NCBI GenBank assembly: GCA_046497485.1
Contig: JAWOFP010000010.1
Coordinates: 1-21,428, forward strand
Direction: 5' to 3'
From: Candidatus Nanohaloarchaea archaeon
Lineage (GTDB): Archaea > Nanohalarchaeota > Nanosalinia > Nanosalinales > Nanosalinaceae
DNA: 21,428 nucleotides
Under the pieces are notes generated by a model. That model saw only the letters and a list, made by a program, of their open reading frames with translations, ran no database searches and was not told where the DNA came from. The first letter of the stretch is position 1. Each line of letters begins with the position of its first letter. The translations under genes and the position numbers were made by a program. Positions 153-21,240 of the stretch are shown in pieces.

Positions 153-915
153 CTCTCCTTCTGAAGCAGAAGTAATTATTCAGAAGCTTCCTTCTGACAT
201 GGGCATTCATAGGAATCCACGGAAAGGAACTCTAGATGCTCCTGAAAAGATCTTGGAAGGCCTTGAATTTGACAGGAGTGTGCTTGTGGAAGAAGTCTTT
301 CCTGATGAGTTTGACTTGGAGGAAACTCATGATAGAATATATGAGAATACTTTAGAATTGGCAGATTTTGATAGGCCTATAGTTTCTCTTGGAGGCGATC
401 ATTCGGTCTCCTATCCAGTTTTTAAGGCCTTGAAGCAGCAAAATCCTGGCATGAAATTAGTTTGGCTTGATGCACATCTTGATATCAAGGAGAAAGTCGA
501 TGGCCATGTCTCTCATGATGTGGTTGTCCGCCAACTAGTCGAGGAAGGCCTGTTTGAACCTGAGGAGATTTATTTTGTTGGAATTACTGAGATTGATCAC
601 GATGAGGAAGGATTTCTCGAAGAGCATGATTTCAATTTTTACAGGCCTGAAGAGTTAGATGATTTTATAGCAGAGTTTGAAGGTATGTCATATCTTTCCA
701 TCGATATAGATGTTCTACAGGAAGAGCTGGCGCCTGGCACAGGATACCCGGATGGTAAACTTGATCTACAGCAGGTTTTAGAAGTTGTTGAAGCGGTCGA
801 ACCCGTACACGCTGACATCGTTGAGGTTGCACCATGTCTAGACCATAAAGGGAAGACAGTCGAGGCCTCAAGGAAGGTTTTGGAGAGAATTATTCCCAAT
901 ACTAGCCAAGACTGA
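142..915 (+). CDS. Ureohydrolase (arginase/agmatinase family)
   Basis: Mn-binding motifs LGGDHSVS, WLDAHLD, SIDIDVL..APGTG, DIVEVAP. Confidence 0.9.
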   Translation: MKTNSPSEAEVIIQKLPSDMGIHRNPRKGTLDAPEKILEGLEFDRSVLVEEVFPDEFDLEETHDRIYENTLELADFDRPIVSLGGDHSVSYPVFKALKQQNPGMKLVWLDAHLDIKEKVDGHVSHDVVVRQLVEEGLFEPEEIYFVGITEIDHDEEGFLEEHDFNFYRPEELDDFIAEFEGMSYLSIDIDVLQEELAPGTGYPDGKLDLQQVLEVVEAVEPVHADIVEVAPCLDHKGKTVEASRKVLERIIPNTSQD

Positions 916-1507
916 ATTTTTCAATTATTTTGAATTCCGGTTTTTCAGTGTCTTTATCCTTAACTAAATATAACTCATTGATTCTTTGATTAGAGATTTC
1001 GAAATCATGGAGAATTTCTTCTATTTCCCGGTTAATTTTGCCTTCTTTCGCATTTTGGTTAAATCTAGATAATGTAAGATGGGGTAAATAATCCTGACCT
1101 TCGTGCTCTAAGTACTGGAATTTATTGTTTAGAGAAATGTTTGCGTCTCGTATCTGTTTAGAGCCACATTCCAAAAATATTACTTCTGGAAAAATGTTTA
1201 GTTCTCCATAATTTACCGTAAATGGCTTGATATCGTCTATAGAATTTTTTACATCTTCAAAATCTGGTTTGCCGTTTCTAAATAATTTTACAGTAATGTG
1301 GAGAAATTCCGGTCTATATACTTCTAGACCTTCAATATTTTCCAGACTCCCCAAAACTTCTTTCAGTTCACGGTTTTTCTTTGGCAATGCTATCAGATAA
1401 TAGAGTTCTTTTTCTTTTGACCACCAAGTTTCTAGAGAATTAATTTTGATGAGGTCTATTTCATCCCTTCTGTTCCAGTTTTGCTTAAATTCTTTATCTA
1501 GTTCCAT
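902..1507 (-). CDS. 2H phosphoesterase (2'-5' RNA ligase / RNA 2',3'-cyclic phosphodiesterase family)
   Basis: Two HxT/S-hydrophobic motifs, LHITV and PHLTL, at typical spacing. Confidence 0.8.
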   Translation of the reverse strand: MELDKEFKQNWNRRDEIDLIKINSLETWWSKEKELYYLIALPKKNRELKEVLGSLENIEGLEVYRPEFLHITVKLFRNGKPDFEDVKNSIDDIKPFTVNYGELNIFPEVIFLECGSKQIRDANISLNNKFQYLEHEGQDYLPHLTLSRFNQNAKEGKINREIEEILHDFEISNQRINELYLVKDKDTEKPEFKIIEKFSLG

Positions 1508-1511
1508 AATT

Positions 1512-2066
1512 TCACAACTTTTTATTTAACAGCCTAAAGGCCTCTGTTGCATCTTCCTCATTTATTATCAGGTGTGAATCTTCTCTGCAGGAGATCAGTT
1601 CTGTGATGTTAATATCTCGAGCTGCAAATAAAGAACAAATATAGGCCATTACTCCGGGAGTTTCTTCCAGGTTTTCAGGGCTTTTGAGACTGATAATAAT
1701 TTGATCTTCTATTTCTTCTCCTTTACAGGCCTTGCTTTGTTTTACTATGTTTGTCCATCCGTTTTCTGTTTTTGCATTTAGATAAGCTTTTTGTTTTTCC
1801 TCTGATTTACATGCCTTGAATCCGCTTTTCAACTCTATACTTGTCTCTCCCAGTACATTTGTAATTTTTTCCTGCCTCTTTTTTCTCTGAGATTTGAGCT
1901 CTTCTTGATATCGTCTCAAAGCTATTTTTATGGCCTCAAAACCGCCCTCTATCTCTGGTTCAATCTTCCTAGCAAGAGCAGAATAGTTTACTATATCTTC
2001 TGATAGTGCATGCTGGATGTAAGGCCTGTCTTCTACAAAGTCTTCAACCTGTTCACGTACAGACAT
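1512..2066 (-). CDS. ACT-domain protein, putative amino-acid-responsive regulator
   Basis: N-terminal helical VNYSALARKI segment; C-terminal ACT signature ETPGVMAYICSLFAARDINITELISC. Confidence 0.8.
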   Translation of the reverse strand: MSVREQVEDFVEDRPYIQHALSEDIVNYSALARKIEPEIEGGFEAIKIALRRYQEELKSQRKKRQEKITNVLGETSIELKSGFKACKSEEKQKAYLNAKTENGWTNIVKQSKACKGEEIEDQIIISLKSPENLEETPGVMAYICSLFAARDINITELISCREDSHLIINEEDATEAFRLLNKKL

Positions 2067-2082
2067 ATTTTACTTATATAGT

Positions 2083-2124
2083 ACAAAAGTTAAGTATTTT
2101 GTTATAGATGTAACTAAATCTATA
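2083..2124. promoter_or_regulatory. Two adjacent inverted repeats in a divergent promoter region (candidate operators)
   Basis: ACAAAA-N8-TTTTGT (2083-2102) is immediately followed by TATAGAT-N8-ATCTATA (2103-2124). Confidence 0.4.
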
Positions 2125-2147
2125 TGTATGCTGGAGATCAAATAACT

Positions 2148-2329
2148 ATGACACAAGGTGCACAACCAATGACAACTACTTCAACTATTGGTGGATATGA
2201 AAGACAGTCAAAATCTGAAAAACACTCAAATTAAAGGTGGATGCGAAAGACTCTCACCTCTCTGAGCTTCTGGACAAGAAACTAGATATTCCTGGTATAA
2301 CTCAGGCCTCGAAAGGAGGTGCAATATAA
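2148..2329 (+). other. Short leader ORF, possibly one ~60 aa gene split by a -1 frameshift
   Basis: ATG 2148 (GGAGA upstream; alternative ATG 2124) reads MTQGAQPMTTTSTIGGYERQSKSEKHSN* to 2234. The -1 frame is open 2219-2329 (KTLKLKVDAKDSHLSELLDKKLDIPGITQASKGGAI*) and ends in a TAATG overlap with the next gene. Confidence 0.4.
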
Positions 2330-3111
2330 TGGATTTAAAGCCTAAATACCAGGAAACCGTCGACGATTACCAGCCATTCGTCCTATGTCCAGAGGAAAAT
2401 CTGGATAATCTGGGAGATGAATTTCTTGGTCAGCAAGTTGAACATTTCGACAGTTATGGAGAGCACGCAGAACAGCTAACTGAAATCCTACTTGATCTAG
2501 ATGGAAAGGCCTACGATGGTCTGCCAATGGATAACTGGATATCTGTAGACGGATGTCAAGAAACATGCGGTATAATAGGATTTGGAACTTACAACGCGGA
2601 GGATCCTGCGGTTTCAGACCTGGATATTCCTCAAGACTATGAAGGTATAATCCCTATCTCTGAGTTTGCTGGAGGATTCAAGCCAGGAAATGAGTTTGTC
2701 GTCAATACTTTAAGCGTCGCAGACAAGCAAGAAGGCCTAGGTGCTCCGACAGCAGCACTTGCCTCAGAAGTAGTTCCAGGAGATGAATGGTATGCAGTAT
2801 CTCAATACGATAATCCTGCGCCAATAATCTACAGCAAGCTAGGCGATATGGACCTCCTTGAGGCCTCAGTGCCAGGTCATTCAAAGCCTGAGGAAAGCTT
2901 CAAGTTTGGCTTAACTGTTGAAGATGAATCGGTTGAGCAGATGCTGAAAGGCGGTGTAGCGGAAGCCGAGCCTGATATGGTCATCGGAATTGATGATGAA
3001 GAGAAGAAACAGCATTTACACCAGACTGATAAAGAGTACAAGATTCTTCCTCCAGGGTCAGTAGAAGTGGACGGAGAGCTTAAACTTGCGTTAACGGAGG
3101 TGAAAAATTAA
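2329..3111 (+). CDS. Hypothetical protein with probable GNAT-like acyltransferase fold
   Basis: SD GGAGGTG at 2315-2321; acidic 260 aa ORF; LSVADKQEGLG resembles GNAT motif A and DNPAPIIYSKLG resembles motif B; TAATG coupling to the next gene. Confidence 0.6.
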   Translation: MDLKPKYQETVDDYQPFVLCPEENLDNLGDEFLGQQVEHFDSYGEHAEQLTEILLDLDGKAYDGLPMDNWISVDGCQETCGIIGFGTYNAEDPAVSDLDIPQDYEGIIPISEFAGGFKPGNEFVVNTLSVADKQEGLGAPTAALASEVVPGDEWYAVSQYDNPAPIIYSKLGDMDLLEASVPGHSKPEESFKFGLTVEDESVEQMLKGGVAEAEPDMVIGIDDEEKKQHLHQTDKEYKILPPGSVEVDGELKLALTEVKN

Positions 3112-4160
3112 TGGTAACCTCTATGCTCAAAGACCTAATTCAAATTAATTCAGTAAGCGGGAAAGAAGAAGAAATCATAGAATATATCTACAGCTATGCA
3201 GAAGAGAAAAATTTTAATCCTCAGAAAATAGGGAGGAACGTGATTTTCAGCTTGGGAGATGGTGAAAAAAAGCTGATCTTAAACTCTCATATAGATACAG
3301 TTGAGGCCTCGGGAGACTGGGAAGTTGATCCGTTTGAAGCTGTAGAAAAAGATGGCAAGATCTATGGTTTAGGCAGCTCAGATAACAAGGGATCTGCGGC
3401 AGCAATGCTTAAAGCAGCTGAGAAAATAAAAGAATCAAATCTGGATAAAGAAGTAATTTTCACCTTTGTAGAAAGAGAAGAGCTTGATGGTTCTGGAACT
3501 AAAAAAGTGATAGATTGGCTCAAAGAAAACAAAGAGCTGGAAAAGTCCGCGGCAGTAATCGGAGAGCCAACAGGCTTAGAGAAAGTCTTGGAAGGATGCA
3601 AAGGTACATCATGGATAAAATTAACAACGAAGATGGAAGGCGGTCACGCATCTAAAGATTTGGAAAACCCGATCGAAGCAGTCTACAAAGTGCTGGAACA
3701 GTTCCAAGATAAGATGGAAAAATTTAATGAGCCTAAACCTAAAATTGAATTGACAAGCATAAAAGCGGGCGACAGCATAAATAAAATCCCTTCAAAAACT
3801 GTGGCAAAGTTCGATATTCGAACAGTTCCAGAGTTCACAGCTGAAGATGTAAAAGAGACCCTTGAAGAGATCACTGAAGGCCTAGAAGCAGAATCGGGTT
3901 TTGAATTCGCTGAGCAACCTTGCCCAGCTTCAAACAGCAAAGATTCTAATATAGTTAATTTTGTGAAGGAAAAAACGGATGCAGGTTCTGAGTTCGCTAA
4001 AGCTGCTAATGATTCATGCTTCTTCACAGAAAATAAAATTAATGCTGCAGTGATTGGACCAGGGCAGGAAGAAACAATTCACAAGCCTGATGAATACATA
4101 GAAAAATCCAAACTAAAGAAAGGCGTTAAAGTTTACAAGGAGATTGCTGAGACCTGGTGA
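3111..4160 (+). CDS. M20 family metallo-deacylase (ArgE/DapE-like)
   Basis: NSHIDTV, YGLGSSDNKG, EREE, VIGEPT, GGHAS, GPG..IHKPDEY motifs. Confidence 0.9.
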   Translation: MVTSMLKDLIQINSVSGKEEEIIEYIYSYAEEKNFNPQKIGRNVIFSLGDGEKKLILNSHIDTVEASGDWEVDPFEAVEKDGKIYGLGSSDNKGSAAAMLKAAEKIKESNLDKEVIFTFVEREELDGSGTKKVIDWLKENKELEKSAAVIGEPTGLEKVLEGCKGTSWIKLTTKMEGGHASKDLENPIEAVYKVLEQFQDKMEKFNEPKPKIELTSIKAGDSINKIPSKTVAKFDIRTVPEFTAEDVKETLEEITEGLEAESGFEFAEQPCPASNSKDSNIVNFVKEKTDAGSEFAKAANDSCFFTENKINAAVIGPGQEETIHKPDEYIEKSKLKKGVKVYKEIAETW

Positions 4161-4163
4161 TTA

Positions 4164-4296
4164 GAGTTCGTAGCTCAGCCTGGACAGAGCACTCGGCTTC
4201 TAAACCTCAAGTCTCTAGAAGAGACGGGGGCTGAGAAGATCTCTGATCTTCGAGAAGGATACCGAGTCGTCGAGGGTTCAAATCCCTCCGAACTCG
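4164..4296 (+). tRNA. tRNA-Arg(UCU) with 58-nt intron (approx. 4203-4260, position 37/38)
   Basis: Acceptor GAGTTCG/CGAACTC, D arm GCTC/GAGC, anticodon stem CTCGG/CCGAG with spliced loop CT-TCT-AA, T arm GAGGG-TTCAAAT-CCCTC, discriminator G. Confidence 0.92.
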
Positions 4297-4298
4297 TA

Positions 4299-4373
4299 AG
4301 GTCTGTAGCTCAGCTGGGACAGAGCAGATGGCTACGAACCATCAGGTCCTGGGTTCAAATCCCAGCAGGCCTG
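4299..4373 (+). tRNA. tRNA-Arg(ACG)
   Basis: Acceptor AGGTCTG/CAGGCCT, D arm GCTC/GAGC, anticodon stem GATGG/CCATC with loop CT-ACG-AA (anticodon 4334-4336), T arm CTGGG-TTCAAAT-CCCAG. Confidence 0.92.
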
Positions 4374-4411
4374 AAAATAAGTTTAAAACAACAAAGGAGG
4401 AAAAACTCAAC

Positions 4412-6034: not shown

Positions 6035-6080
6035 CAGTAAATAAAAGAAATGGTTTCCAAATAATGAATGTGAACTAACA

Positions 6081-6287: not shown

Positions 6288-6298
6288 ATTTAAGCTGA

Positions 6299-6583: not shown

Positions 6584-6604
6584 AGAACTCAGCCATTAAA
6601 TTTA

Positions 6605-6678: not shown

Positions 6679-6776
6679 TATTAGTGGTATTTTGTAGCTT
6701 TTCTATATGATGCTGTGAACGCGGTTTCGTATGAAAGGATTGATAGGTGACATTTAAGAATGAACTCCTAGCTCTT

Positions 6777-7319
6777 CTAGAAGCTTCTTCTGACTATAGC
6801 TGTACCTGTCTGGTGAGGGGCTCTGTCTTCTTGGAAAACTTTTGGATTGGCAGCGGGATCTGCGATCATATCTTCATTTAGTCCAACCCATGCGTGACCG
6901 TCTTGGCGGCCTTCTTCTATGCTGCCGGATTTATATTTTGCGTTGAGGCTTAGTTCATCGTAAAGTAGTTTTAGTGCTGCTGCTCTTTCTCTGCATGTTC
7001 CTGCGGCTGTGTTTTCCCAAGCGCCGTCTAGCACTTTTGAGATTGAGACTTTTGAACCTTTTTTCTGGGCTTTTCGCCTTTTTTGGTCTAGGGATTCTGG
7101 ATCTAGGCCTTTTTCTTCGGCTAGGTCGTATATGTGAGGTATTTTTTCTTCTATGAATTCTGCTGCGGCTTCTTCGATTGCAGCATCGGATTCGTAATCT
7201 AGAAATTCGTTGTAGAGTTCTTCGGCGCTTTCGTCTATTTTTAGGCTATAATGGCCTTCTAAGGTGTCTCCGACCTGTAGATCTACGCCTCCATATCTTG
7301 GTTCGCTCCTGACAACCAT
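6777..7319 (-). CDS. Transglutaminase-like superfamily protein
   Basis: Cys-His-Asp triad context: GTCRERAAAL, GHAWV, IADP. Confidence 0.75.
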   Translation of the reverse strand: MVVRSEPRYGGVDLQVGDTLEGHYSLKIDESAEELYNEFLDYESDAAIEEAAAEFIEEKIPHIYDLAEEKGLDPESLDQKRRKAQKKGSKVSISKVLDGAWENTAAGTCRERAAALKLLYDELSLNAKYKSGSIEEGRQDGHAWVGLNEDMIADPAANPKVFQEDRAPHQTGTAIVRRSF

Positions 7320-7422
7320 ATGTTACTTATCAGTAATAACTATTATATATAGATCCACTATTGTAATAATGTATATACATTAATTCGGAGAACTCATAAG
7401 CTTTGCTCAGTCAAGAAAGAAT

Positions 7423-8427
7423 ATGGGGGATCAAAAAGATACAAAAGAGCATGTAATACCAGGAACAGAGGAAGGTCATAAAGGCGAGACTGTTAGAGGA
7501 TATGACTTCAGGGGCGACTTTAACCTGGAGGATATGTTGGAGGCCTATGGAACAACGGGTTTTCAGGCCTCACACTTGAAAGAAGCAATTGACTTGGTCA
7601 AGGAGATGCAGGATGAAGATGCCAAGATTTTCTTAACGTTCACCTCAAATATTATTAGTTCAGGCCTCAGAGAAGCAATTGCATATCTTGTTAGAGAGGA
7701 CTATATTGATGTTGTGATTACTTCTTCAGGTAGCCATACAGAGGATGTTATTAAAACTGCCAAGCCTTTCAAAATGGGTGAGTGGGACGCTGATGAAGCA
7801 GAGCTGCGTGAAAGAGGAATTAATAGACTAGGCAATATCTATGTAGAATCCGATAACTATGTCTGGCTTGAGTCCTGGCTGAATAATGAGTTTTTCCCGG
7901 ACTTTTTTGATGAGGCGAAGATGCGTTCCCCTACTGAAGTAGCCCGAGAGATAGGTAAATCGGTTGGGGAAGATGAAGAATTAGATCATGAGGACTCTTT
8001 TCTCTACTGGGCCTATGAAAATGATGTATCTGTCTACTGTCCAGCATTAATCGATGCAGAGATTGGCGATTACATGTTCTATTACCGTCAGGAACAGGAC
8101 TCAGAAATCGGAATTGAGATACTTGATGACTGGGACAAGTTAATCCATGAAGCGATAGAGGCAGAGAAGACGGGTATTATCGCGGTAGGAGACGGTGTTC
8201 CGAAGCATCAAGCAATCATGTCGAACCTTTTTAGAGGCGGAACTGATTATGCAGTGTATATCTCGACAGGTATGGAGGGTGACGGAAGTCTAAGTGGTGC
8301 ACCACCTAAGGAAGCTGTTTCATGGGGTAAAATTAAGCAGAAGGCCAGAAATTATACTCAGGTAGAGGCTGAGGCAACTCTTGTCTTTCCTATGATTGTG
8401 GCAGAGGGTTTCAAGAATTATAATTGA
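7423..8427 (+). CDS. dys: Deoxyhypusine synthase
   Basis: TGFQAS, TSNIISSGLRE, INRLGN, GVPKH, DGSLSGAPPKEAVSWGKI (catalytic Lys), EATLVFP. Confidence 0.96.
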   Translation: MGDQKDTKEHVIPGTEEGHKGETVRGYDFRGDFNLEDMLEAYGTTGFQASHLKEAIDLVKEMQDEDAKIFLTFTSNIISSGLREAIAYLVREDYIDVVITSSGSHTEDVIKTAKPFKMGEWDADEAELRERGINRLGNIYVESDNYVWLESWLNNEFFPDFFDEAKMRSPTEVAREIGKSVGEDEELDHEDSFLYWAYENDVSVYCPALIDAEIGDYMFYYRQEQDSEIGIEILDDWDKLIHEAIEAEKTGIIAVGDGVPKHQAIMSNLFRGGTDYAVYISTGMEGDGSLSGAPPKEAVSWGKIKQKARNYTQVEAEATLVFPMIVAEGFKNYN

Positions 8428-8666: not shown

Positions 8667-8864
8667 ATGGAATTTTCAATTTCAAAGATGAAAGAAGTAA
8701 TTGGCACTCAGACAGATAAAAGAGTCTCGAAAGAGGCGGCACAAGAGCTCAGTTCAGATTTAGAGACTAAAGGAAAAGAGATAACTGAAAAGGCTCTAAA
8801 TATTGCTGAGGAAAAGGGAAGGGTTACAGTTAGAGCAGAAGACATCAGAGAAGCTCTTGACTAA
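8667..8864 (+). CDS. Archaeal histone (single fold, variant)
   Basis: Colinear with HMf-type histones: RVS at 19-21, GRxTVxAEDI at 51-60; SD GAGGTGA upstream. Confidence 0.9.
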   Translation: MEFSISKMKEVIGTQTDKRVSKEAAQELSSDLETKGKEITEKALNIAEEKGRVTVRAEDIREALD

Positions 8865-8923
8865 GGCCTAAAACCTCTGTTACTTCTTTTTTACATGTTA
8901 TAAAAATTAAAAAATTTAAGATG

Positions 8924-9172: not shown

Positions 9173-9261
9173 ATACTAGACTTTCTATTCCATTTATAAG
9201 GCCTTTATTTCAGATAAAAATCTATTTTATATTACAATAATAGTGAATTTGAACTAATTTA

Positions 9262-9348: not shown

Positions 9349-9359
9349 ATTTATGTAAT

Positions 9360-9448: not shown

Positions 9449-9487
9449 TATATGAATAAATACAGTGATGAGATTTTTAAACTAAAC

Positions 9488-10717: not shown

Positions 10718-10759
10718 GAGTCGGACAATATTTATTTAGGCCTCTCAAATATTTTGTTA
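10718..10759. promoter_or_regulatory. Compact bidirectional promoter region
   Basis: 42 bp between divergent ATGs with two AT-rich boxes (TATTTATTT, AAATATTTT) flanking a central AGGCCT. Confidence 0.45.
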
Positions 10760-12355: not shown

Positions 12356-13875
12356 TAATCAGTATATCGCTGGCATTGATGATAGCAGGAATCCTTCTCG
12401 TAATATTGAATCGGACAGATATTCCGGAAATACCTATATATCTCGGTTCAGGCCTAATGTTGAGTTTACTGGTTTCTCTGGCACAGTCTAGAGGTATTGT
12501 ATCACACGAGTTCATAGAAGCCGAAATAATGAGAGAGATTGCTTTACTGGGATTAAGTATACTGATTTTTTACAACACCTCAGGAATGCTGTTAGATCCT
12601 AAGAGATCTACCGCTATAGACTCCTTTAAGACCTCATTGTGGATGTCTATAGCCTCTTTCGCAGGAATAACAGGTATTTCGCTTTACTTTGGATTCGCCA
12701 GTCTAGAGTCGCTTTTATTTGGAGTTACAGGAGCTGTAGGCTCTACGTTACTGGACTCAGGGCTGGTAAAGGAAGAAGCCAGGAAAAACCATATCTATGG
12801 CTGGATCACTGAGGATATCAATTTCTACGATGATCTGTTTGGAATAGTAGTTCTTACATTGATTCTGGCCTCTGTCGGAGGCATAGTTCCTTTCACAGGA
12901 TTATTGGTTTCTCTAGTACTGATTCTATCAGCTCTCGTTCTAAGAGATTACTTCAGCAGTATAATAATGAAGATAACCGGCGGCGAAAATGAATTGGTAC
13001 TTCTATCAGGAATCGCCACACTAATATCTATCGTCTGGATTGCTGAAAGCACAGGTGTATCAGCACTAGCTGGAATCTATGCAGCAGGCCTTATACTTGT
13101 CAACACAGAACTTGGTTTCAGGGTTAGAGAAAGATTTACAGCAGTAAAAGACTTCTTCACAGCCTTATCATTTATCTCAATCGGTTACCTATTGACTCTA
13201 CCCGGTGTAAGGTATATTGGGGCTGTTACAGGCTTGGTCCTGTTCGCGTCCGTAATAAGGCCTATGTTCTCGACACAGATCCTAAGGCTTCAGGGATACG
13301 ATCTTAGAACCAGTTTTATGGCCAGTGTTCAGTCTTCTCAGATATCTGAGATAGTTGTAGTCGGGGCTTTGTTGCTTGCTCCTCTAACTGAGAGCCCGGT
13401 GTTTGAAACTGTAGCAATAGGATTTGCGACAACTACTTTGATAGCACATCTAGTTGAGGACAGAGAACAGTATATATTCGATAAAATCTTTTCACAGTAT
13501 GATCTAGACTCAGAAAAGAGCTATGTACCGAACGATATAGAGAACCATGTGATCCTGGCTGGTTACGACTGGAAAACCAAGGATCTGGAGAAAGTAGTGG
13601 ATAAAGATATTATTGTAGCTGATTACAGCTTGGAGAGAATCCAGGATGCTGAAGAGAAAGATCTTCCGCATGTATTGGCTGATCTTCACTCCGATGAGGC
13701 CTGGGAAAAACTTGAGGTTGAAAAGGCCTCCGTGATAGTATCGGCAATTGACGATTCTAAACTTGTTCATAAGATTGAAGGCTTTGATGTGGATGCTGAG
13801 AAAATAGTTCTTACCTCTGACTCTGATGAAGTTAGAGATGAGCTGAGAGAGATGCTTTCTGAGGCCTTAAAATAA
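12352..13875 (+). CDS. Second CPA2 cation:proton antiporter with TrkA-N domain
   Basis: ATGA overlap with the upstream paralog; many TM helices, FYDD motif, VKDFFTALSF, SQISE, NHVILAGY. Confidence 0.85.
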   Translation: MIISISLALMIAGILLVILNRTDIPEIPIYLGSGLMLSLLVSLAQSRGIVSHEFIEAEIMREIALLGLSILIFYNTSGMLLDPKRSTAIDSFKTSLWMSIASFAGITGISLYFGFASLESLLFGVTGAVGSTLLDSGLVKEEARKNHIYGWITEDINFYDDLFGIVVLTLILASVGGIVPFTGLLVSLVLILSALVLRDYFSSIIMKITGGENELVLLSGIATLISIVWIAESTGVSALAGIYAAGLILVNTELGFRVRERFTAVKDFFTALSFISIGYLLTLPGVRYIGAVTGLVLFASVIRPMFSTQILRLQGYDLRTSFMASVQSSQISEIVVVGALLLAPLTESPVFETVAIGFATTTLIAHLVEDREQYIFDKIFSQYDLDSEKSYVPNDIENHVILAGYDWKTKDLEKVVDKDIIVADYSLERIQDAEEKDLPHVLADLHSDEAWEKLEVEKASVIVSAIDDSKLVHKIEGFDVDAEKIVLTSDSDEVRDELREMLSEALK

Positions 13876-13902
13876 AAAAAGAAAGAGAAAAAGTTTTTTA
13901 GC
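13876..13902. terminator. Bidirectional oligo-T terminator region
   Basis: A-tracts followed by a T-tract between convergent stops give U-runs on both strands. Confidence 0.55.
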
Positions 13903-14592
13903 TTACATCTGTTCTTCTGCTTCATGTATTAGATACATGTCAAGGAATCCGTAGGCCTGTTTACAGAAGAAAGGCAGGATTACGAATGCTACGGATGTTT
14001 CGAATGCTCCGAAGATTCCCGGTCCTGCTGGGTAAATTGTCTCACTCAAATACCAAACTGTTGGGTAAAGTACGAAGAACACTGAGATGTATGCTGAAAG
14101 CGTTGTGTAGCTTCTTGCAAGCACATCAGAGGTTTCTTTCGCCATTTCTCTGAGCGGTCCCCAGACTAGGTAGAATACTCCTAGGAGTAAGGCGTTACCT
14201 ATCCAGTATGCATAGGTCATTCCTGACTCCTGTGAAATGATTCCTGTAATTACCAGCATGAACTGTAGACCCATCAATGCGCCTAATAAGTCCCATCTGG
14301 TTTCTCTACCGTGCATGGCCGTGAGGCCTAAAGCCAGCAGAATTAGCGGTGTAGAAATCATCCAATCCATGTACCATCCGAAGTTACTCAACGCTGTTCC
14401 GTTGAGGAAGTTCAGATACATGATTCCCGACCAAGTTACAATAAAGAAGTGTATAATCGGGAATTTTAGAGGTACATTTTTCCACCATACCTTCCTGAGA
14501 AACAGGTAAAGCAGACCGCTTAGAAAAGCGGTTGCGATGTAAGCCATCAAGTAAGGTGTGCTGCCAGAAGCAGCAATGGCTTCATATACCAT
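13903..14592 (-). CDS. Xenorhodopsin (light-driven inward H+ pump, Nanosalina type)
   Basis: 7 TM; helix C WYMDWMISTPL (W73, D76, S80, A87), H48, helix G LPFFCKQAYGFLD with retinal Lys, Pro replacing BR D212, and cytoplasmic Asp. Confidence 0.95.
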   Translation of the reverse strand: MVYEAIAASGSTPYLMAYIATAFLSGLLYLFLRKVWWKNVPLKFPIIHFFIVTWSGIMYLNFLNGTALSNFGWYMDWMISTPLILLALGLTAMHGRETRWDLLGALMGLQFMLVITGIISQESGMTYAYWIGNALLLGVFYLVWGPLREMAKETSDVLARSYTTLSAYISVFFVLYPTVWYLSETIYPAGPGIFGAFETSVAFVILPFFCKQAYGFLDMYLIHEAEEQM

Positions 14593-14743
14593 ATTATAAC
14601 CTGTTGTAAAGATTGTATATAATAATTATCATGATTAAGGTATAAGACCTGGAAATAAATTGATAAGAGAAATTAAAAGAGAAATAAAATATGTAATTTA
14701 GACTTATATGGGGTCTACAGCGTAAAACTAGATTAAACCTACT

Positions 14744-15874
14744 CTAATCTAGGAATGTTTCGTTCTCTATCTTCTCTGGCAGGTATTCGTTTGCCACGAA
14801 CTCTAGACTGTTGGCTGCTAAGGCCTGTTGCTCGACTCTGACTCCTTTGTCAAGCATGGTCTGTAACTGTTTCTGCCACTGCTCATCCTGCATCCACTCA
14901 TAATCCATGACGTCATGGATACGTTTGTAGTCCTTGGTAGGGCCTCCATTATCCTTACTTTTTCCTTTGAGTCCTTCTGTAACATGCTCCAAGTCATACT
15001 CATCAATGTCCTCCATTGTCATACCGATTAACTTGGCATCAGGAGTAGCCAATCGATCGGACTGGAAAGCAAGAGACATGGATCCAGATTTAAGCACGGA
15101 GTAAATGTAGTATCCCCAAGGGTCGCCGTCCGTAAACACATAGACGGGTAGGTCAAGTTCGTTATGCATCATGTTAATGAGTCTCCTAGCTCCACGAGCT
15201 GGCTGTCCTCCAGTACCGATAATAATTGCATTGTGCTCAGCGTGGAAATCTTCCTCGACCAGTCGGTTAACCATCGCAGATGTCTCGACCACAAGGATGA
15301 AATCTGCATTATTTTCCACAAACTCGAAATGGTCCACAATTGAGTTGATTGCCATACCTGAGCTTCCCATACTCATTCCGTCAATAATATCGCCTGAGTC
15401 TTCAATTTTGATTGGTCCGAACAGTCTTCCCTTCGGCTCTGCGAAAAGATGTAAATCTTCACGGATTGCGCCCGTAGCAGTCTCAATATCTACAACAACA
15501 TTGTTAGACTCATCCTGATCCTCAAATGTGTTCTCATCTAGGCCTGGTACTGTATGCTTCAACTGGTAGTAAACCTCTCTGATTGATGCGGTTCTACCTC
15601 CTTCCACAAGCTCCTTACACTTTGATGCGACCAGGGTAGTCTGCATGAACTTTCGGGCATGCGAGATGTTCAGGAACTTTCTTGTGGAGTAAGAGTCTCC
15701 AAGTTCAAGTCTTTCATCTTCTTCATCGTATTCAACGTTTGACTTGGATCTCACCTGTGTCTCAAAAGTTAGGTTTTCATCTTCTTCATCATTCAATTGT
15801 CTCAAGAGTTTCTTACCTAGATGCGTTAAGCGATCCAGGGTCTTCTCATCATTTGCTAGGTCTTTCTTTGGCAT
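14744..15874 (-). CDS. top6A: DNA topoisomerase VI subunit A
   Basis: SIREVYY (catalytic Tyr region), FEDQDES, TOPRIM VVE and TDGDPWG, VEQQAL. Confidence 0.97.
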   Translation of the reverse strand: MPKKDLANDEKTLDRLTHLGKKLLRQLNDEEDENLTFETQVRSKSNVEYDEEDERLELGDSYSTRKFLNISHARKFMQTTLVASKCKELVEGGRTASIREVYYQLKHTVPGLDENTFEDQDESNNVVVDIETATGAIREDLHLFAEPKGRLFGPIKIEDSGDIIDGMSMGSSGMAINSIVDHFEFVENNADFILVVETSAMVNRLVEEDFHAEHNAIIIGTGGQPARGARRLINMMHNELDLPVYVFTDGDPWGYYIYSVLKSGSMSLAFQSDRLATPDAKLIGMTMEDIDEYDLEHVTEGLKGKSKDNGGPTKDYKRIHDVMDYEWMQDEQWQKQLQTMLDKGVRVEQQALAANSLEFVANEYLPEKIENETFLD

Positions 15875-15885
15875 TTTTTAATCAC

Positions 15886-17481
15886 CTAAAGTTGCTCAGG
15901 GTTGTAGTCGGCTTCAACCATCGCCTGAATCTGGTTTTCAATTTCTTCAGCACTACCTTCTCCTGCAAGGCCTACAATAGCTGGCCCCATTTCTTTGGCA
16001 TAAGAGGTAAGCTGGCGCTTTTTCTTCTCTTGAATAGCTTTTCTCTCTTTCCTTCCGATGTATCTTCCAAGCTTTCTACCGGCTTCTTGAAGCGCTAACT
16101 TCATCTCTTTCCTGATAGGATCGTAGTTAGCTACAGCTTCCTTACCTTCAGATGTGAACGGAACCCAGACAGAAGCAATATGCACTAAAATATAAAGCGG
16201 GCCTTGAGGCCTGTTACCTGTCTGACTAATATTGTAGCGGTTCCAGGAAACATTTTCAATTGCTTTAGTTGTTACACATGAAGACTTTTTGTAAAGCAGC
16301 GGGACTTTGTTCGCATAACGGAGTTCTTCGAAGCTTCCTTCATCTTCAATATCTCCACCCCATGCAAGGCCTACTTCTATTTGGAAAGGATTTCCTTTGT
16401 AGACTGTAGGTTTACGGGTAATCGCAGTAGAGAATTCAGGATTTAACTCCTTTTTCAGGCCTTTCAATACTAGGTCTTCTCCAATCGGTGAAAGGCAGTC
16501 TGTTGGAGGGCTCTGAAGCTTCACATTCTGTGCTGCTTTAAGCAAGGTCTCTATCTCATCTTTATCTAAAGTGTTAGGCCTCCTACCTGTATCCATGTCC
16601 GCCTCATCGCAGATTTCTTCTGCTGAAGTTCTCCCAACTCGTGTGAATTCGTTCTGCAGGAATGACGTGATTGTTCTTGCTGAACTGTTTTCCACCATTC
16701 TCATCATAACTCCTAGCTCTACTCCATGAGGGTGAGGCTTGATCTCCTTAGGTTTCTTCGGTAGATCTCTGGAAACTCTTGGATATTCGATCTTGTTTCC
16801 GTCAGGCTCTCGCAGTACTACTCTGGCATACGGGTTCATAATTGCGGTATGCTTCAGGTAGTTCTTTACGGAGTGGTGTCCATGAGTGTATTTCGCCTCG
16901 ATATCCATCTCAATCGTTGTACCGTGATCAAAGTAGTAGTCTTTGTCTCCTGGGAACTCATCGCTTTCAGGATCGACTACTTCATCTTCTGTAATATTTG
17001 GCTCGTTTGTCTCTGTATCAATACTTACAACAAATTTGTGGCATGGCTCGCCTTCCTGTTTGGAGTAAACTGTTACAGGCTCTCCTGTAGTTAACTGTGC
17101 ATACATTGCGGATGCAGAGATTCCGATTCCCTGCTGTCCACGGCTCTGCTGCAGTTTGTGGAACTTTGAACCATAAAGTAATTTACCGAAAACCTTTGGA
17201 ATAGTCTCTCGGTCAAGGCCTATAGCGTTGTCCCTGATCTCGACTCGACACTTCTTATCTCCTATCTCATCTATCAGGACATGTATTTCCGGCAGAATTT
17301 CGTCTTCCTCGCATGCGTCCAGCGAGTTGTCGACTGCCTCTTTTACTACTGTTATTATTGATTTCTGTGCGTTTTCAAATCCGAGGAGATGCTTGTTCTT
17401 TTCGAAGAACTCTGCTACGGAGATCTCTCTGTGGTCTCCGCCTGCTTCTTCCTCTATTTCTTCTTCAATTCCGTTTGGCAT
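15886..17481 (-). CDS. top6B: DNA topoisomerase VI subunit B
   Basis: SVAEFFEKN, KEAVDNSLDA, SRGQQGIGIS GHKL motifs, RYANKVPLLY. Start likely ATG 17481 (AGGTGA upstream); GTG 17496 is the alternative. Confidence 0.97.
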   Translation of the reverse strand: MPNGIEEEIEEEAGGDHREISVAEFFEKNKHLLGFENAQKSIITVVKEAVDNSLDACEEDEILPEIHVLIDEIGDKKCRVEIRDNAIGLDRETIPKVFGKLLYGSKFHKLQQSRGQQGIGISASAMYAQLTTGEPVTVYSKQEGEPCHKFVVSIDTETNEPNITEDEVVDPESDEFPGDKDYYFDHGTTIEMDIEAKYTHGHHSVKNYLKHTAIMNPYARVVLREPDGNKIEYPRVSRDLPKKPKEIKPHPHGVELGVMMRMVENSSARTITSFLQNEFTRVGRTSAEEICDEADMDTGRRPNTLDKDEIETLLKAAQNVKLQSPPTDCLSPIGEDLVLKGLKKELNPEFSTAITRKPTVYKGNPFQIEVGLAWGGDIEDEGSFEELRYANKVPLLYKKSSCVTTKAIENVSWNRYNISQTGNRPQGPLYILVHIASVWVPFTSEGKEAVANYDPIRKEMKLALQEAGRKLGRYIGRKERKAIQEKKKRQLTSYAKEMGPAIVGLAGEGSAEEIENQIQAMVEADYNPEQL

Positions 17482-17492
17482 AGTATTTTTGT

Positions 17493-17996
17493 TCACCTTC
17501 TGATTCTGTCCTGGTTTTTCTCCAGGTAATTATAAGCTGTAGAGTGAGAGCTACCGTTCAAAAGCATTTTCACCGCTCCCTGAGCTACTTCAATATTCTG
17601 AATATGTCCGATAAAACCTACGGTCTTACCGTAAACCGATATTTGGACTTCGGTCATTTTCTCGATATGCTTCCGTGTCTCACCGTCACGGCCTATGACT
17701 CGTCCTTTCAAACGCTCCTGACCATTCTGGCGGTCATCAAACTTGCTGATATCTAAGTGATGAAAATCAAAGTCTTCCTGAACAAGTTTTAAGGCCTTAT
17801 CAGGGTTAAAACCTCTGCCTATAGCCTTGACAATTCTTTGAGCATCCATCTCGTCAAGAACATCACCTTCTACCTTGACATCGTTATCTTCGATAGTTAC
17901 TTCTGTACCTGTGTCTTCTTCGATACGGTCTTTGGTTTCTCCACCTTCACCGATAAGAACGCCTACGCGGTCTTCAGGAATACGGACTTCTCTCAC
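17493..17996 (-). CDS. KH-domain rRNA processing protein (Dim2/Pno1/Krr1 family)
   Basis: RVGVLIGEGG, AIGRGF, GRVIGRDG, SVYGKTV. Start likely GTG 17996 (TATAAAAA about 25 nt upstream); ORF track gives 18014. Confidence 0.93.
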   Translation of the reverse strand: MREVRIPEDRVGVLIGEGGETKDRIEEDTGTEVTIEDNDVKVEGDVLDEMDAQRIVKAIGRGFNPDKALKLVQEDFDFHHLDISKFDDRQNGQERLKGRVIGRDGETRKHIEKMTEVQISVYGKTVGFIGHIQNIEVAQGAVKMLLNGSSHSTAYNYLEKNQDRIRR

Positions 17997-18048
17997 AAAA
18001 AATAGTGGTCGCACAACCTTTTTATACCTTGGAACTGCCTTAGAGGCC

Positions 18049-18807
18049 TTAACGACCGGGTATTACAGAATTTAAAGCTTCCTCATGTGTCATATTTGCT
18101 CCTTGTTTCCTGAAGAAATTCACAATATTTTCCACATCCCTCTTCAAAAGTTCTCGGGCCTCAGGGTGTGATTCATGGACTCCTTGCGAAAAATCAATCC
18201 AAACTAACTGGTCTTCTTCAACTAAAATATTATACTCTGACAAATCGCCATGAACTAATTTCTCTTCTTCCCATAAGGCCTTCATATTTTCTAGTACCTG
18301 ATTTAGGGCTGCTTCAGGATTCTCAATATTTACTTCTTTCAACTTGGGATAGGCCTGTAAGTCCTCGCCGACAAACTCCATAACCAGTACATTTTCCTGC
18401 AAACCATAGACTTTAGGGCATCTAACAACATTGGAGGCCTTTTTCAAGTTCTTGAACTCTTTTTTCGCCCAAGCATCCACCACGCTTTTCCGGTCTTTCT
18501 TCACCCCTCTAAATCTTTTATCTCCACGGAGATACTGATGCATCTCTCTGAATGCTCCAGCACGCTTCATGTAGATCTTGACAACGGCTAGGCCTTCATC
18601 CGTCTCAGCCAATAAAATTGCGGATTCTTTCCCTGATTCAATTATTCCATGCATCCTGTTAATCAAATTCCTGTCAGCGGCCTTCAACAAGGCATCCATA
18701 GTGTCATCATCTAAGACGTTCTCAACTGCTTTCTGGGCCTCTGAAGAGTCGAACATACGGCGCTTCTTCTCCTTCCGTCGCGGATACATCTCGTCGTCTT
18801 CAACCAT
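18049..18807 (-). CDS. rio1: RIO1 family Ser/Thr kinase
   Basis: SGKES, VKIY, WAKKEFKNL, LVHGDLSEYNIL, IDFSQ; conserved context. Confidence 0.95.
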   Translation of the reverse strand: MVEDDEMYPRRKEKKRRMFDSSEAQKAVENVLDDDTMDALLKAADRNLINRMHGIIESGKESAILLAETDEGLAVVKIYMKRAGAFREMHQYLRGDKRFRGVKKDRKSVVDAWAKKEFKNLKKASNVVRCPKVYGLQENVLVMEFVGEDLQAYPKLKEVNIENPEAALNQVLENMKALWEEEKLVHGDLSEYNILVEEDQLVWIDFSQGVHESHPEARELLKRDVENIVNFFRKQGANMTHEEALNSVIPGR

Positions 18808-18884
18808 TATAGAATATAGTTTGAGGCCTCAGAGATTTAATCTTTGAAAATTCTGTCTAGAAATTAAGTATAGAAAAATAGGTT

Positions 18885-19199
18885 TTATAGGAACTCCTTG
18901 ATCTCGTCAAGGTAGTCTCTGTCTTCTAACCAGTCCTGCTGGGCCTGGCTGAAGCTCTCTATGATGTCTCCTTTCTCGTCTCCCTGAATATCCCAAGGAT
19001 CTACAAGTACAACTGAGTCTCTCTTAACCCAGAGGCCTCTCTTCTTTGATCCAGGGATGCGGCAGGTTCTCTCATTTCCGTCTGTGCAGTATACTTTGTA
19101 TTTTCCGCCGCCTACTTTACGCAGTACGATTCCCAGTACTTCATCTCCACTAGGTGTGCGTACACGCTTTATTTCCTGATCTTCATCGTCTTGAGCCAT
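18885..19199 (-). CDS. eif1a: Translation initiation factor aIF-1A
   Basis: VYCTDGNERTCRIPG, LWVKRDSVVLVDPWDIQGDEKGDI. Confidence 0.95.
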   Translation of the reverse strand: MAQDDEDQEIKRVRTPSGDEVLGIVLRKVGGGKYKVYCTDGNERTCRIPGSKKRGLWVKRDSVVLVDPWDIQGDEKGDIIESFSQAQQDWLEDRDYLDEIKEFL

Positions 19200-19259
19200 T
19201 ATATTATGTTATTGTTGATTGAAGTTTTTTAAACCGCTACAGTCATAAGTAGAATTTCA

Positions 19260-19931
19260 TTATAGCCTTACAGAAACCACATTTCTGTAGACTCGCTGAC
19301 CATCGTCTTCTCCCACGAGTTCGTAGCTTCTCTCAATATCAGGGTTGTAACTCTCTCTAAGCATTGAAAGAATCTTTTTGTTCATTTTCTCGGTCGATAG
19401 GTAGAAGTCTATTCCGCCGTCCCGCTGCTCCATATTGGATAAGAAGTCTGAACGGTTTCTATTAGTGAGCTCGGCGGCTTTATCAGTTATTTCATCCGCT
19501 ATGTCCTGAATATTTTCTCCTCTCAACTGGATCTTGGCTTTGTAGAATCCGCCTTGGAATCTTGAGCAGTCCGGGCACTGGTCCTCGGTCCATTCAACTT
19601 TGACATCTGCAAAATCCTTTAATTCTCCTTCAGAGATATGCAGTCTGACAAAGAACTCCTCTTCTTCCTCCCAGTATTGAAGCTCTAAATGATAATCCTC
19701 TGCAATATCCGAAAAGGCCTCTGCCAGTTGATCTTCTATGGTGTAGGCTTCTATCCATTCTCCTTTTTCTTTCATTCTGCCGCAGACAGAGCATGTCTCG
19801 ATCTCTATCTCTCGCGGAGTATCGACTAAATCATTTACATTTGTGAAACAGTCAGGACAGAGTTTTTTCTCATCTCCGTAAAGGCTGTCTGTCTCTTCAC
19901 CGCATCTCGGGCAGAATTTTGAAAGTTCCAT
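19260..19931 (-). CDS. NMD3-family ribosome-associated protein
   Basis: FCPRCG, four CxxC pairs, CPDCSRFQGGFYKAKIQLRG, GGIDFY, LVG...RVYR. Confidence 0.9.
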   Translation of the reverse strand: MELSKFCPRCGEETDSLYGDEKKLCPDCFTNVNDLVDTPREIEIETCSVCGRMKEKGEWIEAYTIEDQLAEAFSDIAEDYHLELQYWEEEEEFFVRLHISEGELKDFADVKVEWTEDQCPDCSRFQGGFYKAKIQLRGENIQDIADEITDKAAELTNRNRSDFLSNMEQRDGGIDFYLSTEKMNKKILSMLRESYNPDIERSYELVGEDDGQRVYRNVVSVRL

Positions 19932-19956
19932 AATTAATCCTTAGGTTTCAAATCTT

Positions 19957-20292
19957 TTAACTCAGATTAAGCTTATCTCCCTTTTCAAGGCCTAAATTCT
20001 CGAAACTTTCCAGCAAATACTGGTAACGTTTTTCAGGCCTGTAAAAAGCCCATGTTCTTGGGTTCCAGCCCCAAGGCATAGCTTTCTCCGTGTGAATTAA
20101 TTCTTTTTCCGAGTCAAAAAAGTAGAGGTAGAGCGGTACGGATAGTAGCACCATATCGATTTTTGCCTTTGTAGGCCTTGGGAACTTGAAAAGCATTTTA
20201 CCCTCATTTCTAAGGGATAGGCCCCAGGCCCGTTTCAGTAAGTTATCCGCCAATTCTACATTGAGTTCTTGGTCTTCTACTTTTATTTTCAT
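19957..20292 (-). CDS. DUF192 family protein
   Basis: VELAD..KRAWGL, MLFKF, PL..YFFD, YLLE, GD pattern. Confidence 0.8.
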   Translation of the reverse strand: MKIKVEDQELNVELADNLLKRAWGLSLRNEGKMLFKFPRPTKAKIDMVLLSVPLYLYFFDSEKELIHTEKAMPWGWNPRTWAFYRPEKRYQYLLESFENLGLEKGDKLNLS

Positions 20293-20765
20293 TCAGTTGA
20301 TGGCTCATCGTAGAAGCTAAATGCTTTTGCCAGTCTTGGAGTCCTGGTCAGGCCTTTTGTCAATCTTTCAAGTCTTGCAGCTCTGCTTAACTCTCCGCTT
20401 CCGGCAATCGCCGCTAGTCTTTCTGACCGAGTGGCTAAATGAATAGCATCTTGGCTGAGCTCTGCACTCCTAGTTATCACAAATATGGTGTCTAGGACTC
20501 TGAATAGGATGAATCCTGGCATTATCGCAATTATTTCCAGCCAGTACTTTTTGACAAAACCTTCCCATTCTGAGGCCCGTTTGAATTTGAACCCTAAGTC
20601 AACGACAAATATCGAAATAGCAGAGTAATCTGCTACAAGTATAGCTGTATGGTATTTATGGGCTAAATCTGGAAGAAATATCTCCATCAAAATTACAATT
20701 AAGATTACTATTAGAGCTGGACCTACAAGCCTATCAGTCCAGTCATGAAGTGTATCCCAGTCCAT
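20289..20765 (-). CDS. Membrane protein resembling an isolated voltage-sensor (ion transport S1-S4) domain
   Basis: S2-like IFVVDLGFKF, S3-like FVKKYWLEIIAIMP, RxxR series SRAARLERLTKGLTRTPRLAK; no pore motif. Confidence 0.6.
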   Translation of the reverse strand: MDWDTLHDWTDRLVGPALIVILIVILMEIFLPDLAHKYHTAILVADYSAISIFVVDLGFKFKRASEWEGFVKKYWLEIIAIMPGFILFRVLDTIFVITRSAELSQDAIHLATRSERLAAIAGSGELSRAARLERLTKGLTRTPRLAKAFSFYDEPSTE

Positions 20766-20887
20766 ATCAAAAATTGCTGAAGCTTAATTAAATATATTTG
20801 GCCGAATAAACTCGCTGAGCCAATGCTGAGTCCTCAAACACTATTTATAGAGAATCATGAGAGAAAAATTAAGAAATTTAGGCCTCG

Positions 20888-21163
20888 TTAAAAAGATTTC
20901 AGACTTCCCAAGTCGTCTCTTTCCTCAGTGTTGCCTTCTGTTGTCAACCATTTCTTATCATGGACTTTCAGTTTATCGCCCTCAGCCCATCTACCGTCAT
21001 CAAGATATGCGGTTCTGACATCCTTCCCTTTCCTGACATGTTTAAGGACTTTCTTCCGTTTCCTGATCTTTTCAGCCTTTTCCTGAAGGCCTTTACTCGT
21101 CTTTACTTTTGCTATCTGTCCGTCATCGTTCCGCCTCACATTTTTCACATAGTATTCTACCAT
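20888..21163 (-). CDS. DUF3892-like small basic protein
   Basis: YYVKNVRR.DGQI N-terminus and WLTTEGN..DDLGSL.F C-terminus resemble DUF3892. Confidence 0.65.
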   Translation of the reverse strand: MVEYYVKNVRRNDDGQIAKVKTSKGLQEKAEKIRKRKKVLKHVRKGKDVRTAYLDDGRWAEGDKLKVHDKKWLTTEGNTEERDDLGSLKSF

Positions 21164-21240
21164 AGTAATAGAAAGGCCTCAGAAGGGTATATGGTTATGT
21201 ACAGAAGAATAAAGCCGATAATTTAGAGATAACGCTTATT

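Follow-up and report, generated by a model that had tools for sequence, protein, structure and literature searches.

AGGCCT, a highly iterated palindrome in the genomes of one nanohaloarchaeal family

The contig JAWOFP010000010.1 of a Candidatus Nanohaloarchaea archaeon (assembly GCA_046497485.1), 21,428 bp long, is crowded with copies of a single six-letter palindrome. AGGCCT is a true highly iterated palindrome, i.e., a word-specific signal of one nanohaloarchaeal family that acts at the level of DNA. In the window, by which we mean this contig at its full length (C46 of the source genome G000), 71 exact copies lie between positions 258 and 21179, the last at 21174-21179. This amounts to about one per 300 bp in DNA with a GC content of 0.37-0.44. 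Shuffling the window 100 times with preservation of dinucleotides yielded a mean of 5.26 copies (standard deviation 2.32, maximum 11), and 71 was reached in 0 of the 100 shuffles. The original prediction, made from the letters of the window, had spoken of about 70 sites, one per some 300 bp, in a roughly 20-fold excess, and had called this an archaeal signal of the HIP1 type, HIP1 being the highly iterated palindrome of cyanobacteria. Count and excess were right, and the comparison with HIP1 is supported: the word is a GC-rich palindrome in 21-fold excess that occupies all reading frames and the spacers, and codon usage does not explain it.

The enrichment could have been a peculiarity of the window. 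It is not. The source genome (967,558 bp in 66 contigs, GC 41.5%) contains 3,249 copies, one per 298 bp. AGGCCT is its top hexamer, and the runner-up, counted on both strands, is less than half as frequent. The ratio of observed to expected copies (O/E) is 21.1 if expectation is based on base composition, 14.8 with a Markov model of order 1, 2.3 with order 3 and 1.09 with order 4. Two other rich genomes, G010 and G022, reach 19.5 and 12.2. GGCC occurs 4,608 times in G000 and 3,249 of these are within AGGCCT, as had been anticipated from the rarity of GGCC in other flanks, while the positions flanking AGGCCT contain no more than 0.036 bit of information. With flanks that poor in information and AGGCCT making up the bulk of all GGCC, the unit is therefore the bare hexamer. 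As in HIP-type words, it is a short, GC-rich and exact palindrome with a genome-wide excess of at least 15-fold (G000 and G010).

A trivial explanation has to be considered: the word might simply follow from the usage of codons or amino acids, or from a general bias of mutational context, with no process directed at the word itself. The Markov-4 expectation, which nearly equals the count (O/E 1.09), could be quoted in its favour. That near-agreement, however, arises from the word itself, which also inflates the pentamers. A greedy caller delineated 977 open reading frames (ORFs) of at least 100 aa, which cover 88.7% of G000; the density of AGGCCT is 3.35/kb within them and 3.23/kb elsewhere. 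All three reading frames are used (523, 977 and 1,382 sites), which bears out what had been claimed from the window. When synonymous codons were shuffled within each gene, with protein and codon usage kept (30 shuffles), 397±20 copies remained (maximum 433) vs 2,882 in the real genes; permutation of codons left 186±14. Codon bias had been considered an unlikely cause from the start, and the enrichment indeed persists against the shuffle that preserves amino acids and codons. Flanks are uninformative, sister genomes of like GC contain 97 and 2,478 copies, and reversed peptides, to be discussed below, are flat. The density in spacers, the synonymous shuffle and the contrast between sisters of like GC refute the by-product reading, and we give it practically no chance. 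The word is found in all coding frames and in non-coding DNA, and it does not result from codon or amino-acid usage.

The proteins have been altered to accommodate it. Peptides that permit AGGCCT in their genes are RP, [KEQ]A[FLSYCW] and xGL, and 64-77% of the 4,295 positions so permitted in G000 actually carry the word. These hosting peptides are 40-84% commoner in rich proteomes: per 1000 aa there are 15.0 in G000, 16.0 in the first 760 kb of G010 and 12.2 in G022, compared with 8.7 in the poor genome G024. The reversed control peptides amount to 8.3-8.6 per 1000 aa in all four genomes, the amino-acid composition of which is similar. RP may serve as an example: its frequency is 2.36 in rich vs 1.17 in poor, that of the reversed PR 1.22 vs 1.23. 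The frequency of the hosting peptides is thus raised. Genes for tRNAs are poor in the word, with 2 sites in the 29 tRNAs of G000; those detected in G010 and G022 are free of it.

A second property of AGGCCT is that it keeps its distance from itself. The smallest gap in the window is 24 bp (7541/7565), and gaps of up to 20 bp are missing where ~4.5 would be expected (70 gaps, geometric distribution). In the genome as a whole, 35 gaps of ≤20 bp compare with 211 expected and 284 gaps of ≤60 bp with 593, and the coefficient of variation of the gaps is 0.896, as opposed to 0.996±0.018 if sites are placed at random. At the long end there is hardly any deficit (82 gaps of more than 1 kb vs 103 expected). 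The spacing was tested against the set of positions at which AGGCCT is synonymously possible. In G000, the fraction of such positions that is realised depends on the distance to the nearest site: it is 0.10 at 1-10 bp, a bin that takes in overlapping and hence mutually exclusive positions, 0.31 at 11-20 bp, 0.53 at 21-40 bp, 0.60 at 41-60 bp, 0.67 at 61-100 bp and 0.76 at 101-200 bp, and it is flat beyond. With permuted labels, the genes of G000 would contain 97.7±7.0 gaps of ≤20 bp; 22 are real.

The same holds for pairs that do not overlap. At a distance of 6-10 bp, both positions are realised at 0.09 (G000), 0.37 (G010) and 0.22 (G022) of the independent expectation; the ratio returns to 1 at ~60-130 bp, and exponential recovery has length constants of 57.5, 48.9 and 26.8 bp. 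Counted as pairs 6-20 bp apart, AGGCCT reaches 0.21, 0.37 and 0.39 of expectation in the three rich lineages; the remaining 61 palindromic hexamers, pooled as a control, reach 1.2-1.8 at 6-60 bp in all four genomes. This local saturation is specific to the word: a second copy within ~10 bp is no commoner than chance, and the plateau is reached by ~100 bp. Since the 10% realised beside an existing site equal the background of the synonymous shuffle (397/4,295, 9%), the drive looks absent near an existing copy; it does not look as if close pairs were penalised. Realisation that stays flat past 100 bp and a count of long gaps close to normal also speak against a function on the kilobase scale. 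A site for a chromatin protein, one of the meanings proposed for the word at the outset, gains support from this self-spacing.

The word is not common to the phylum. A survey of 70 of its genomes, with the reversed word as control, revealed 12 rich ones with ~1.7-4.8 copies/kb (based on rounded genome sizes). They comprise G000-G003 of genus g1, G010, G049 and G050 of g7, G022, G057 and G058 of g19, and G005 and G060 of g2. Genus g2 is polymorphic: two of its six genomes are rich, and G059, G061, G062 and G063 are poor. One further member of g1, G004, is intermediate with 762 copies in ~0.8 Mb, and in the remaining genomes AGGCCT stays near the count of the control word. Every rich genome belongs to one family; in the four other families 0 of 20 genomes are rich.

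How often the trait changed was read from a tree of one protein, topoisomerase VI subunit B (Topo VI-B), in 30 genomes, eleven genomes without a usable locus being left out. The trait needs 4 changes on this tree, the starred branches force at least 3, and a single change is permitted by 0 of 200 bootstrap trees. Rich and poor genomes come as sisters in the pairs G022/G024 (support 100/95), G010/G018 (97/97) and G005/G023 (87/85). The Topo VI locus itself illustrates the contrast, with 15 copies in 4.6 kb of G000 vs 0 to 1 in 11 poor relatives. In the window, the genes of topoisomerase VI A and B (14744-17496, minus strand) are housekeeping genes that contain AGGCCT at the density typical of the genome. 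Two peculiarities of the Topo VI-B gene may be added here. In G014 (C1:24802-29514) the match is broken into three parts inside one open frame of ~1,570 aa, probably due to inteins, and in-frame stop codons are seen in G005 (TAG; C1:110484-112073) and G026 (TAA; C31:9527-11071).

Gain and loss can be followed within g1. G003 and G004 share 71-80% identity over ~9 kb of orthologous sequence; the corresponding Topo VI locus of G001 was misaligned (46% identity) and was excluded from the site comparison. Of 27 aligned copies in G003, 2 are common with G004, which has 4 of its own. If a site is called ancestral when G000 has it together with G003, G004 or both, G003 has retained 12 of 15 and G004 4 of 15, on a small sample without a matched control word. 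On these numbers, G004 has the look of a lineage in which the force is gone and the word decays roughly neutrally, and G003 of one that still maintains it. Between the three rich lineages, orthologous potential positions are filled with only modest concordance (Mantel-Haenszel odds ratios 2.2-3.6), and joint occupancy is 0.49-0.61 compared with 0.45-0.58 under independence. The fill rate is 0.70 where the peptide context is not conserved and 0.73 where it is, which implies that filling is largely independent of position. Contigs from four public sequencing runs that cover the window have 0 of 40 listed variant places (of ~2,967) within AGGCCT, a result that is powerless with 0.8 expected.

Which letters matter can be deduced from the variants that deviate by one letter, again with the poor genome G024 as reference. 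The six inner variants all lie at 0.80-0.89 relative to it. The outer ones are up 2-19 fold, most of all in G022; the bias of one-letter deviations towards the first and last letters, known from HIP-type words, is clear in raw O/E in G022 only. In its other contexts GGCC falls short of expectation in G000 (0.23-0.64), and further still in G024 (0.05-0.33). In G022, unlike G000 and G010, GGCC as a whole has an O/E of 2.8, and AGGCCV and BGGCCT reach 3.2-3.6 each. The reader of the word, whatever its nature, appears to be laxer at the outer positions in G022. Its recognition would be strict for GGCC and less so for the outer A and T, with a stringency that is specific to the lineage. G024 itself avoids short palindromes strongly (O/E 0.14 for ACGT, 0.23 for CGCG, 0.33 for GGCC and 0.05 for GGGCCC), which suggests restriction pressure; it also has an island with a C5 methylase at ~836-842 kb.

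The one concrete mechanism put forward for such a word is a ratchet of methylation and mismatch repair, Elhai's model for highly iterated palindromes: a cytosine methylase marks AGGCCT or GGCC, a context-specific repair converts T:G mismatches towards the word, and sites accumulate. That directional repair can raise a short palindrome is known from the Dcm/Vsr system of E. coli, the signature of which is a depletion of T-for-C neighbours together with a modest gain. G000 does encode a type II C5 methylase. Also, 9 of 11 single-step losses in G004 are C:G>T:A changes at the four central positions and involve both cytosines; in the background, 1006 transitions face 823 transversions. Further, cyanobacterial palindromes of this kind co-occur with cognate methylases; according to the accessible part of Elhai's article, a methylase is present whenever the palindrome is frequent (PMC4390886).

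In AGGCCT-rich genomes this does not appear to be so. The C5 methylase, the only one of G000, turned up in none of the other rich genomes, and C5 methylases are present in six poor ones. The hidden Markov model (HMM) of the C5 family, PF00145, finds no match in any of five other rich genomes, among them three that are single contigs and 95-99% complete; these genomes thus lack a recognisable cognate enzyme, in contrast to the cyanobacterial rule just cited. PF01555 matches in G022 alone, with an enzyme that scores as type III Mod. PF02384 detects HsdM-like enzymes in G005 and G022 only, with weak matches in G010 and G002 and none in G003, and no N4/N6 or N6 methylase is common to the rich genomes. 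The original prediction had proposed to search for a methyltransferase of AGGCCT or GGCC together with a Vsr-like nuclease: no such methyltransferase is common to the rich genomes, and Vsr was not found in G000, the sole genome searched for it. Transition neighbours are no more depleted than transversion neighbours (AGGTCT 0.89 and AGGCTT 0.81 vs 0.80-0.86, relative to the poor sister). AGGCCT differs from a Dcm/Vsr product in several respects: no common methylase, no Vsr in G000, no depletion of T-for-C neighbours, and a gain that is 21-fold. Nor does a ratchet predict self-spacing. A methyltransferase specific for the word or its core wherever the word is frequent, as in the HIP-type systems, was not found, though a novel or trans-supplied enzyme might have escaped the search. 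In short, the ratchet fares badly, and we consider it quite improbable. For a cultivated nanohaloarchaeon, a strain that is not known to be rich in AGGCCT, the accessible text of two reports mentions GDGcHC as the only methylated motif, with m6A and m4C as the modifications called (PMC11001535, PMC10266531).

The methylase of G000 resides on an island of its own. On contig C53, the ORFs 98-1264, 1322-2932 and 2916-4274 (L001:98-2728) encode the C5 methylase, an AAA_5/McrB-like ATPase and a protein of 452 aa; the methylase gene is divergent to that of the ATPase. Its match to M.HaeIII covers the catalytic half only. C53 is the contig with the lowest density of AGGCCT in G000 (1.83/kb), and the island was seen in G000 only among 41 relatives searched. 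It is probably a recently acquired defence island. Further stretches of at least 2 kb that are free of AGGCCT, C32:18762-20781, C50:5098-7841 and C64:2622-5389 (GC 0.38-0.40), are candidates for recent acquisitions; on the first of them, the ORF C32:19679-20659 is nearer to G024 than to G022.

Integrated elements carry the word at the level expected from composition. An element with a D5-type primase-helicase (G000 C59:7088-11337), for which no viral relatives were found, has one copy in 4.25 kb. A larger one of ~25-30 kb in G022 (C1 ~203,000-232,000), with a phage-type integrase at its start (205092-206726), has 1-4 copies per 10 kb at a host-like GC of 0.455-0.46, as opposed to a genome mean of 23.6; a P-type ATPase is present on it as a second copy. 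AGGCCT is thus a mark of chromosomal DNA of long residence, and elements neither seek nor avoid it.

If a protein drives the word, its gene might be common to rich genomes and missing from poor ones. The screen covered G022 and G024 as a whole, the first 68% of G010, and ORFs of at least 80-100 aa. It gave 38 ORFs of G000 with a homologue in rich G022 and none in its poor sister G024, and 16 ORFs of G022 that are common to G000 and the screened part of G010 and absent from G024. No restriction or modification genes are among them. A second filter asked for G000 proteins with a much closer counterpart in G022 than in G024; it contributed three more, namely an Orc1/Cdc6 paralogue, an HxlR regulator and an RHH-nucleotidyltransferase. 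Fourteen candidates were examined; each is present in poor genomes or missing from complete rich ones. The C5 methylase of C53, which did not come from the profile, turned up in no other rich genome. The three proteins of the second filter fail the contrasts between rich and poor, and so do a SAM methyltransferase, Ogt, a ParB-like protein, an unknown protein of 215 aa, a Toprim/DnaG-like protein, a membrane OB-fold protein, AbrB and a coiled-coil protein. A protein of 146 aa without a Pfam family (G000 C17:11966-12406) occurs, among 41 genomes, in G000, G003 and G022 only, all three of which are rich in AGGCCT; being absent from G005 and G010, which are rich and complete, it is not a general driver. 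Other members of the two lists, outside these candidate tests, are transporters, hydrolases, salvage enzymes and genes of elements. Seen from the side of gene loss, 245 ORFs of G024 are absent from G000, G022 and the screened part of G010. A small ORF or an RNA may be the driver; so may a particular allele of some universal protein, a gene from the remaining third of G010, or something non-chromosomal.

What kind of process is compatible with all this? We favour, at a probability of about 45%, a word that is read by a protein, independently of methylation, and installed approximately once per 50-100 bp. A symmetric, probably dimeric, protein would read AGGCCT on double-stranded DNA. Its occupancy would be favoured, either through selection or through a biased repair directed by recognition, and the protein, or a complex nucleated by it, would cover some tens of bp. 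Given such coverage, a neighbouring copy would bring nothing. The process would depend neither on a canonical chromosomal cytosine methylase nor on repair of the Vsr type.

Several observations weigh against this protein-read word. A plain steric footprint predicts a step, yet the recovery seen is gradual. No recognising protein has been found, as the 14 candidates fail in other contrasts of rich and poor, and the profile covered 68% of G010 and ORFs of at least 80-100 aa only. No helical or nucleosome-like periodicity of spacing survives the permutation null: a 10-bp helical period is seen in the averaged spectrum and is lost when labels are permuted (z ~0 in G000 and G010), with one outlier of z = 3.1 in G022 among 57 tests. 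For selection to act on ~3,000 weak sites, the effective population would have to be large, and in an obligate symbiont this is doubtful. Finally, tests on sequences would not reveal 5-methylcytosine, a methylase family that goes unrecognised or a trans-supplied enzyme.

An alternative is a self-DNA tag that acts through coverage. The word would allow a DNA-scavenging symbiont to favour or to spare DNA of its own, be it as an uptake signal or, like Chi, as a signal to stop degradation; it would spread because uptake and recombination are biased or because tagged DNA survives. The models are well known: the uptake signal sequences (USS) of Pasteurellaceae, the DNA uptake sequences (DUS) of Neisseriaceae and Chi are words of self-DNA, over-represented in genes as well as spacers, that owe their spread to a molecular drive and not to a function of individual genes. 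They are longer than AGGCCT and non-palindromic, oriented (Chi) or often found as inverted pairs (USS, DUS), and occur about once per kb or less. AGGCCT has in common with them the genome-wide excess in genes and spacers. A tag would also account for the equal density in both, the equivalence of all mutational neighbours as precursors, the lack of the word in integrated elements, its patchy distribution and quick loss, and the fact that a nearby second copy adds nothing. However, realisation stays at a plateau of ~0.75 past 100 bp and gaps of more than 1 kb are near their normal number (82 vs 103), so nothing is at work over the kilobase distances typical of uptake or resection. By simple arithmetic, six bases offer a discrimination of ~10-20 fold only, and the known uptake signals have 9-12 bp, are not palindromic and are often paired. 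AGGCCT is a 6-bp palindrome, its close pairs are depleted to 0.21-0.39, and nothing acts beyond ~100 bp. No surface or nuclease gene was found to co-vary with the word, and the membrane OB-fold candidate failed. Taken together, a self-tag is unlikely, though it deserves to be kept in mind.

The protein that reads the word need not be encoded by the symbiont's chromosome. An enzyme or DNA-binding protein of the host might arrive via a cell-cell bridge, or the gene might sit on an unbinned plasmid or virus, and the trait would then follow the partner. This would fit the absence of a co-varying chromosomal gene, 14 having been tried after an unbiased profile, and the difference between congeners (2 of 6 rich in g2; G003 vs G004). 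An exchange of methylases between a nanohaloarchaeon and its host is proposed in the accessible text of a consortium study (PMC11001535). Against it stands that the same hexamer in at least four lineages needs the same foreign factor each time, and that the incomplete profile may simply have missed a chromosomal driver. We consider a reader of foreign origin rather improbable. Equally speculative is a wider view, in which AGGCCT is the docking word of a DNA-marking or chromatin system that works without methylation: a symmetric protein, possibly supplied by a host or an unbinned element, would occupy the word with some tens of bp on top and thereby tell the own chromosome from imported DNA. 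In such a system the symbiont would draw material from a host with DNA poor in the word, thousands of codons and more than 1000 amino-acid positions would have been rewritten, and the whole would be gained and lost within one genus. The odds of this extended version are small.

To our knowledge, HIP1 has lacked an explanation for some thirty years, with methylation as its only concrete model. The HIP1 sequence is GCGATCGC, and alternate highly iterated palindromes of cyanobacteria are described along with it in the available parts of two papers (PMC4390886, PMC5861425). As far as these parts go, HIP1 and AGGCCT are alike: both are short, GC-rich, exact palindromes in tens-fold excess, in all frames and in non-coding DNA, beyond what codon usage can explain; each persists in part of its lineages and has been lost or replaced elsewhere; and both tolerate outer variants more than inner ones. 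AGGCCT differs in having six bases instead of eight, in belonging to another domain of life and in residing in a symbiont genome of 1 Mb. It also differs by its self-exclusion over tens of bp, compared with HIP1 as treated in the accessible text of PMC5861425. That study deals with a periodicity of 10-90 kb and with a conservation of sites among related genomes that exceeds background, and its randomisations imposed no more than an 8-bp minimum. Outside subscription journals and supplements, we found no published description of an AGGCCT excess in nanohaloarchaea. Papers on highly iterated palindromes that match archaea deal, by their titles and abstracts, with cyanobacteria, argonautes or the detection of gene transfer, and the match examined for nanohaloarchaeal palindromes dealt with CRISPR only. 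New here are the self-spacing, the methylase test by family HMM, the neighbour-word test, the control by reversed peptides, the survey of 70 genomes with a polymorphic genus, and the negative screen for drivers.

A signal of the HIP type is thereby seen in a second domain of life, in genomes of 1 Mb, with sisters and congeners that have the word or lack it. The self-exclusion over tens of bp is a new quantitative constraint for any mechanism. The question of the driver is tractable by comparative genomics on a few small genomes and by simple biochemistry on co-cultures. There are also practical consequences: AGGCCT distorts codon usage, dipeptide frequencies and binning based on k-mers, and it cleanly flags foreign DNA.

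Some individual sites of the window may be added. One lies in a tRNA stem, as had been stated: 4367-4372, within tRNA-Arg(ACG) (4299-4373), comprises the 3' strand of the acceptor stem and the discriminator base, and it is one of the two copies in tRNA genes of G000. Six sites had been taken as intergenic, and five of them are. The site 8864-8869 lies between the deoxyhypusine synthase gene (7423-8427) and the following ORF, and 9199-9204 upstream of a PglZ/phosphodiesterase-like gene (9488-10717, minus strand). Between the genes of the RIO1 kinase (18049-18807) and aIF-1A (18885-19199) there is 18824-18829, and between the ORFs 20289-20765 and 20888-21163 there is 20880-20885; 21174-21179 separates the latter ORF from tRNA-Arg(GCG) (21241-21312). 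The sixth, at 10738, is within an ORF only if the TTG start at 10664 is real.

Contigs of close strains skip three stretches of the window. The PglZ/phosphodiesterase-like gene is skipped with 9489-10729 in the runs X2, X6 and X9, and an ORF of 180 aa (6777-7319) with 6760-7453 in X2 and X6. One contig of X9 skips 10679-14745, which contains two genes of Na+/H+ exchangers and a rhodopsin gene. All three are indels at the level of strains.

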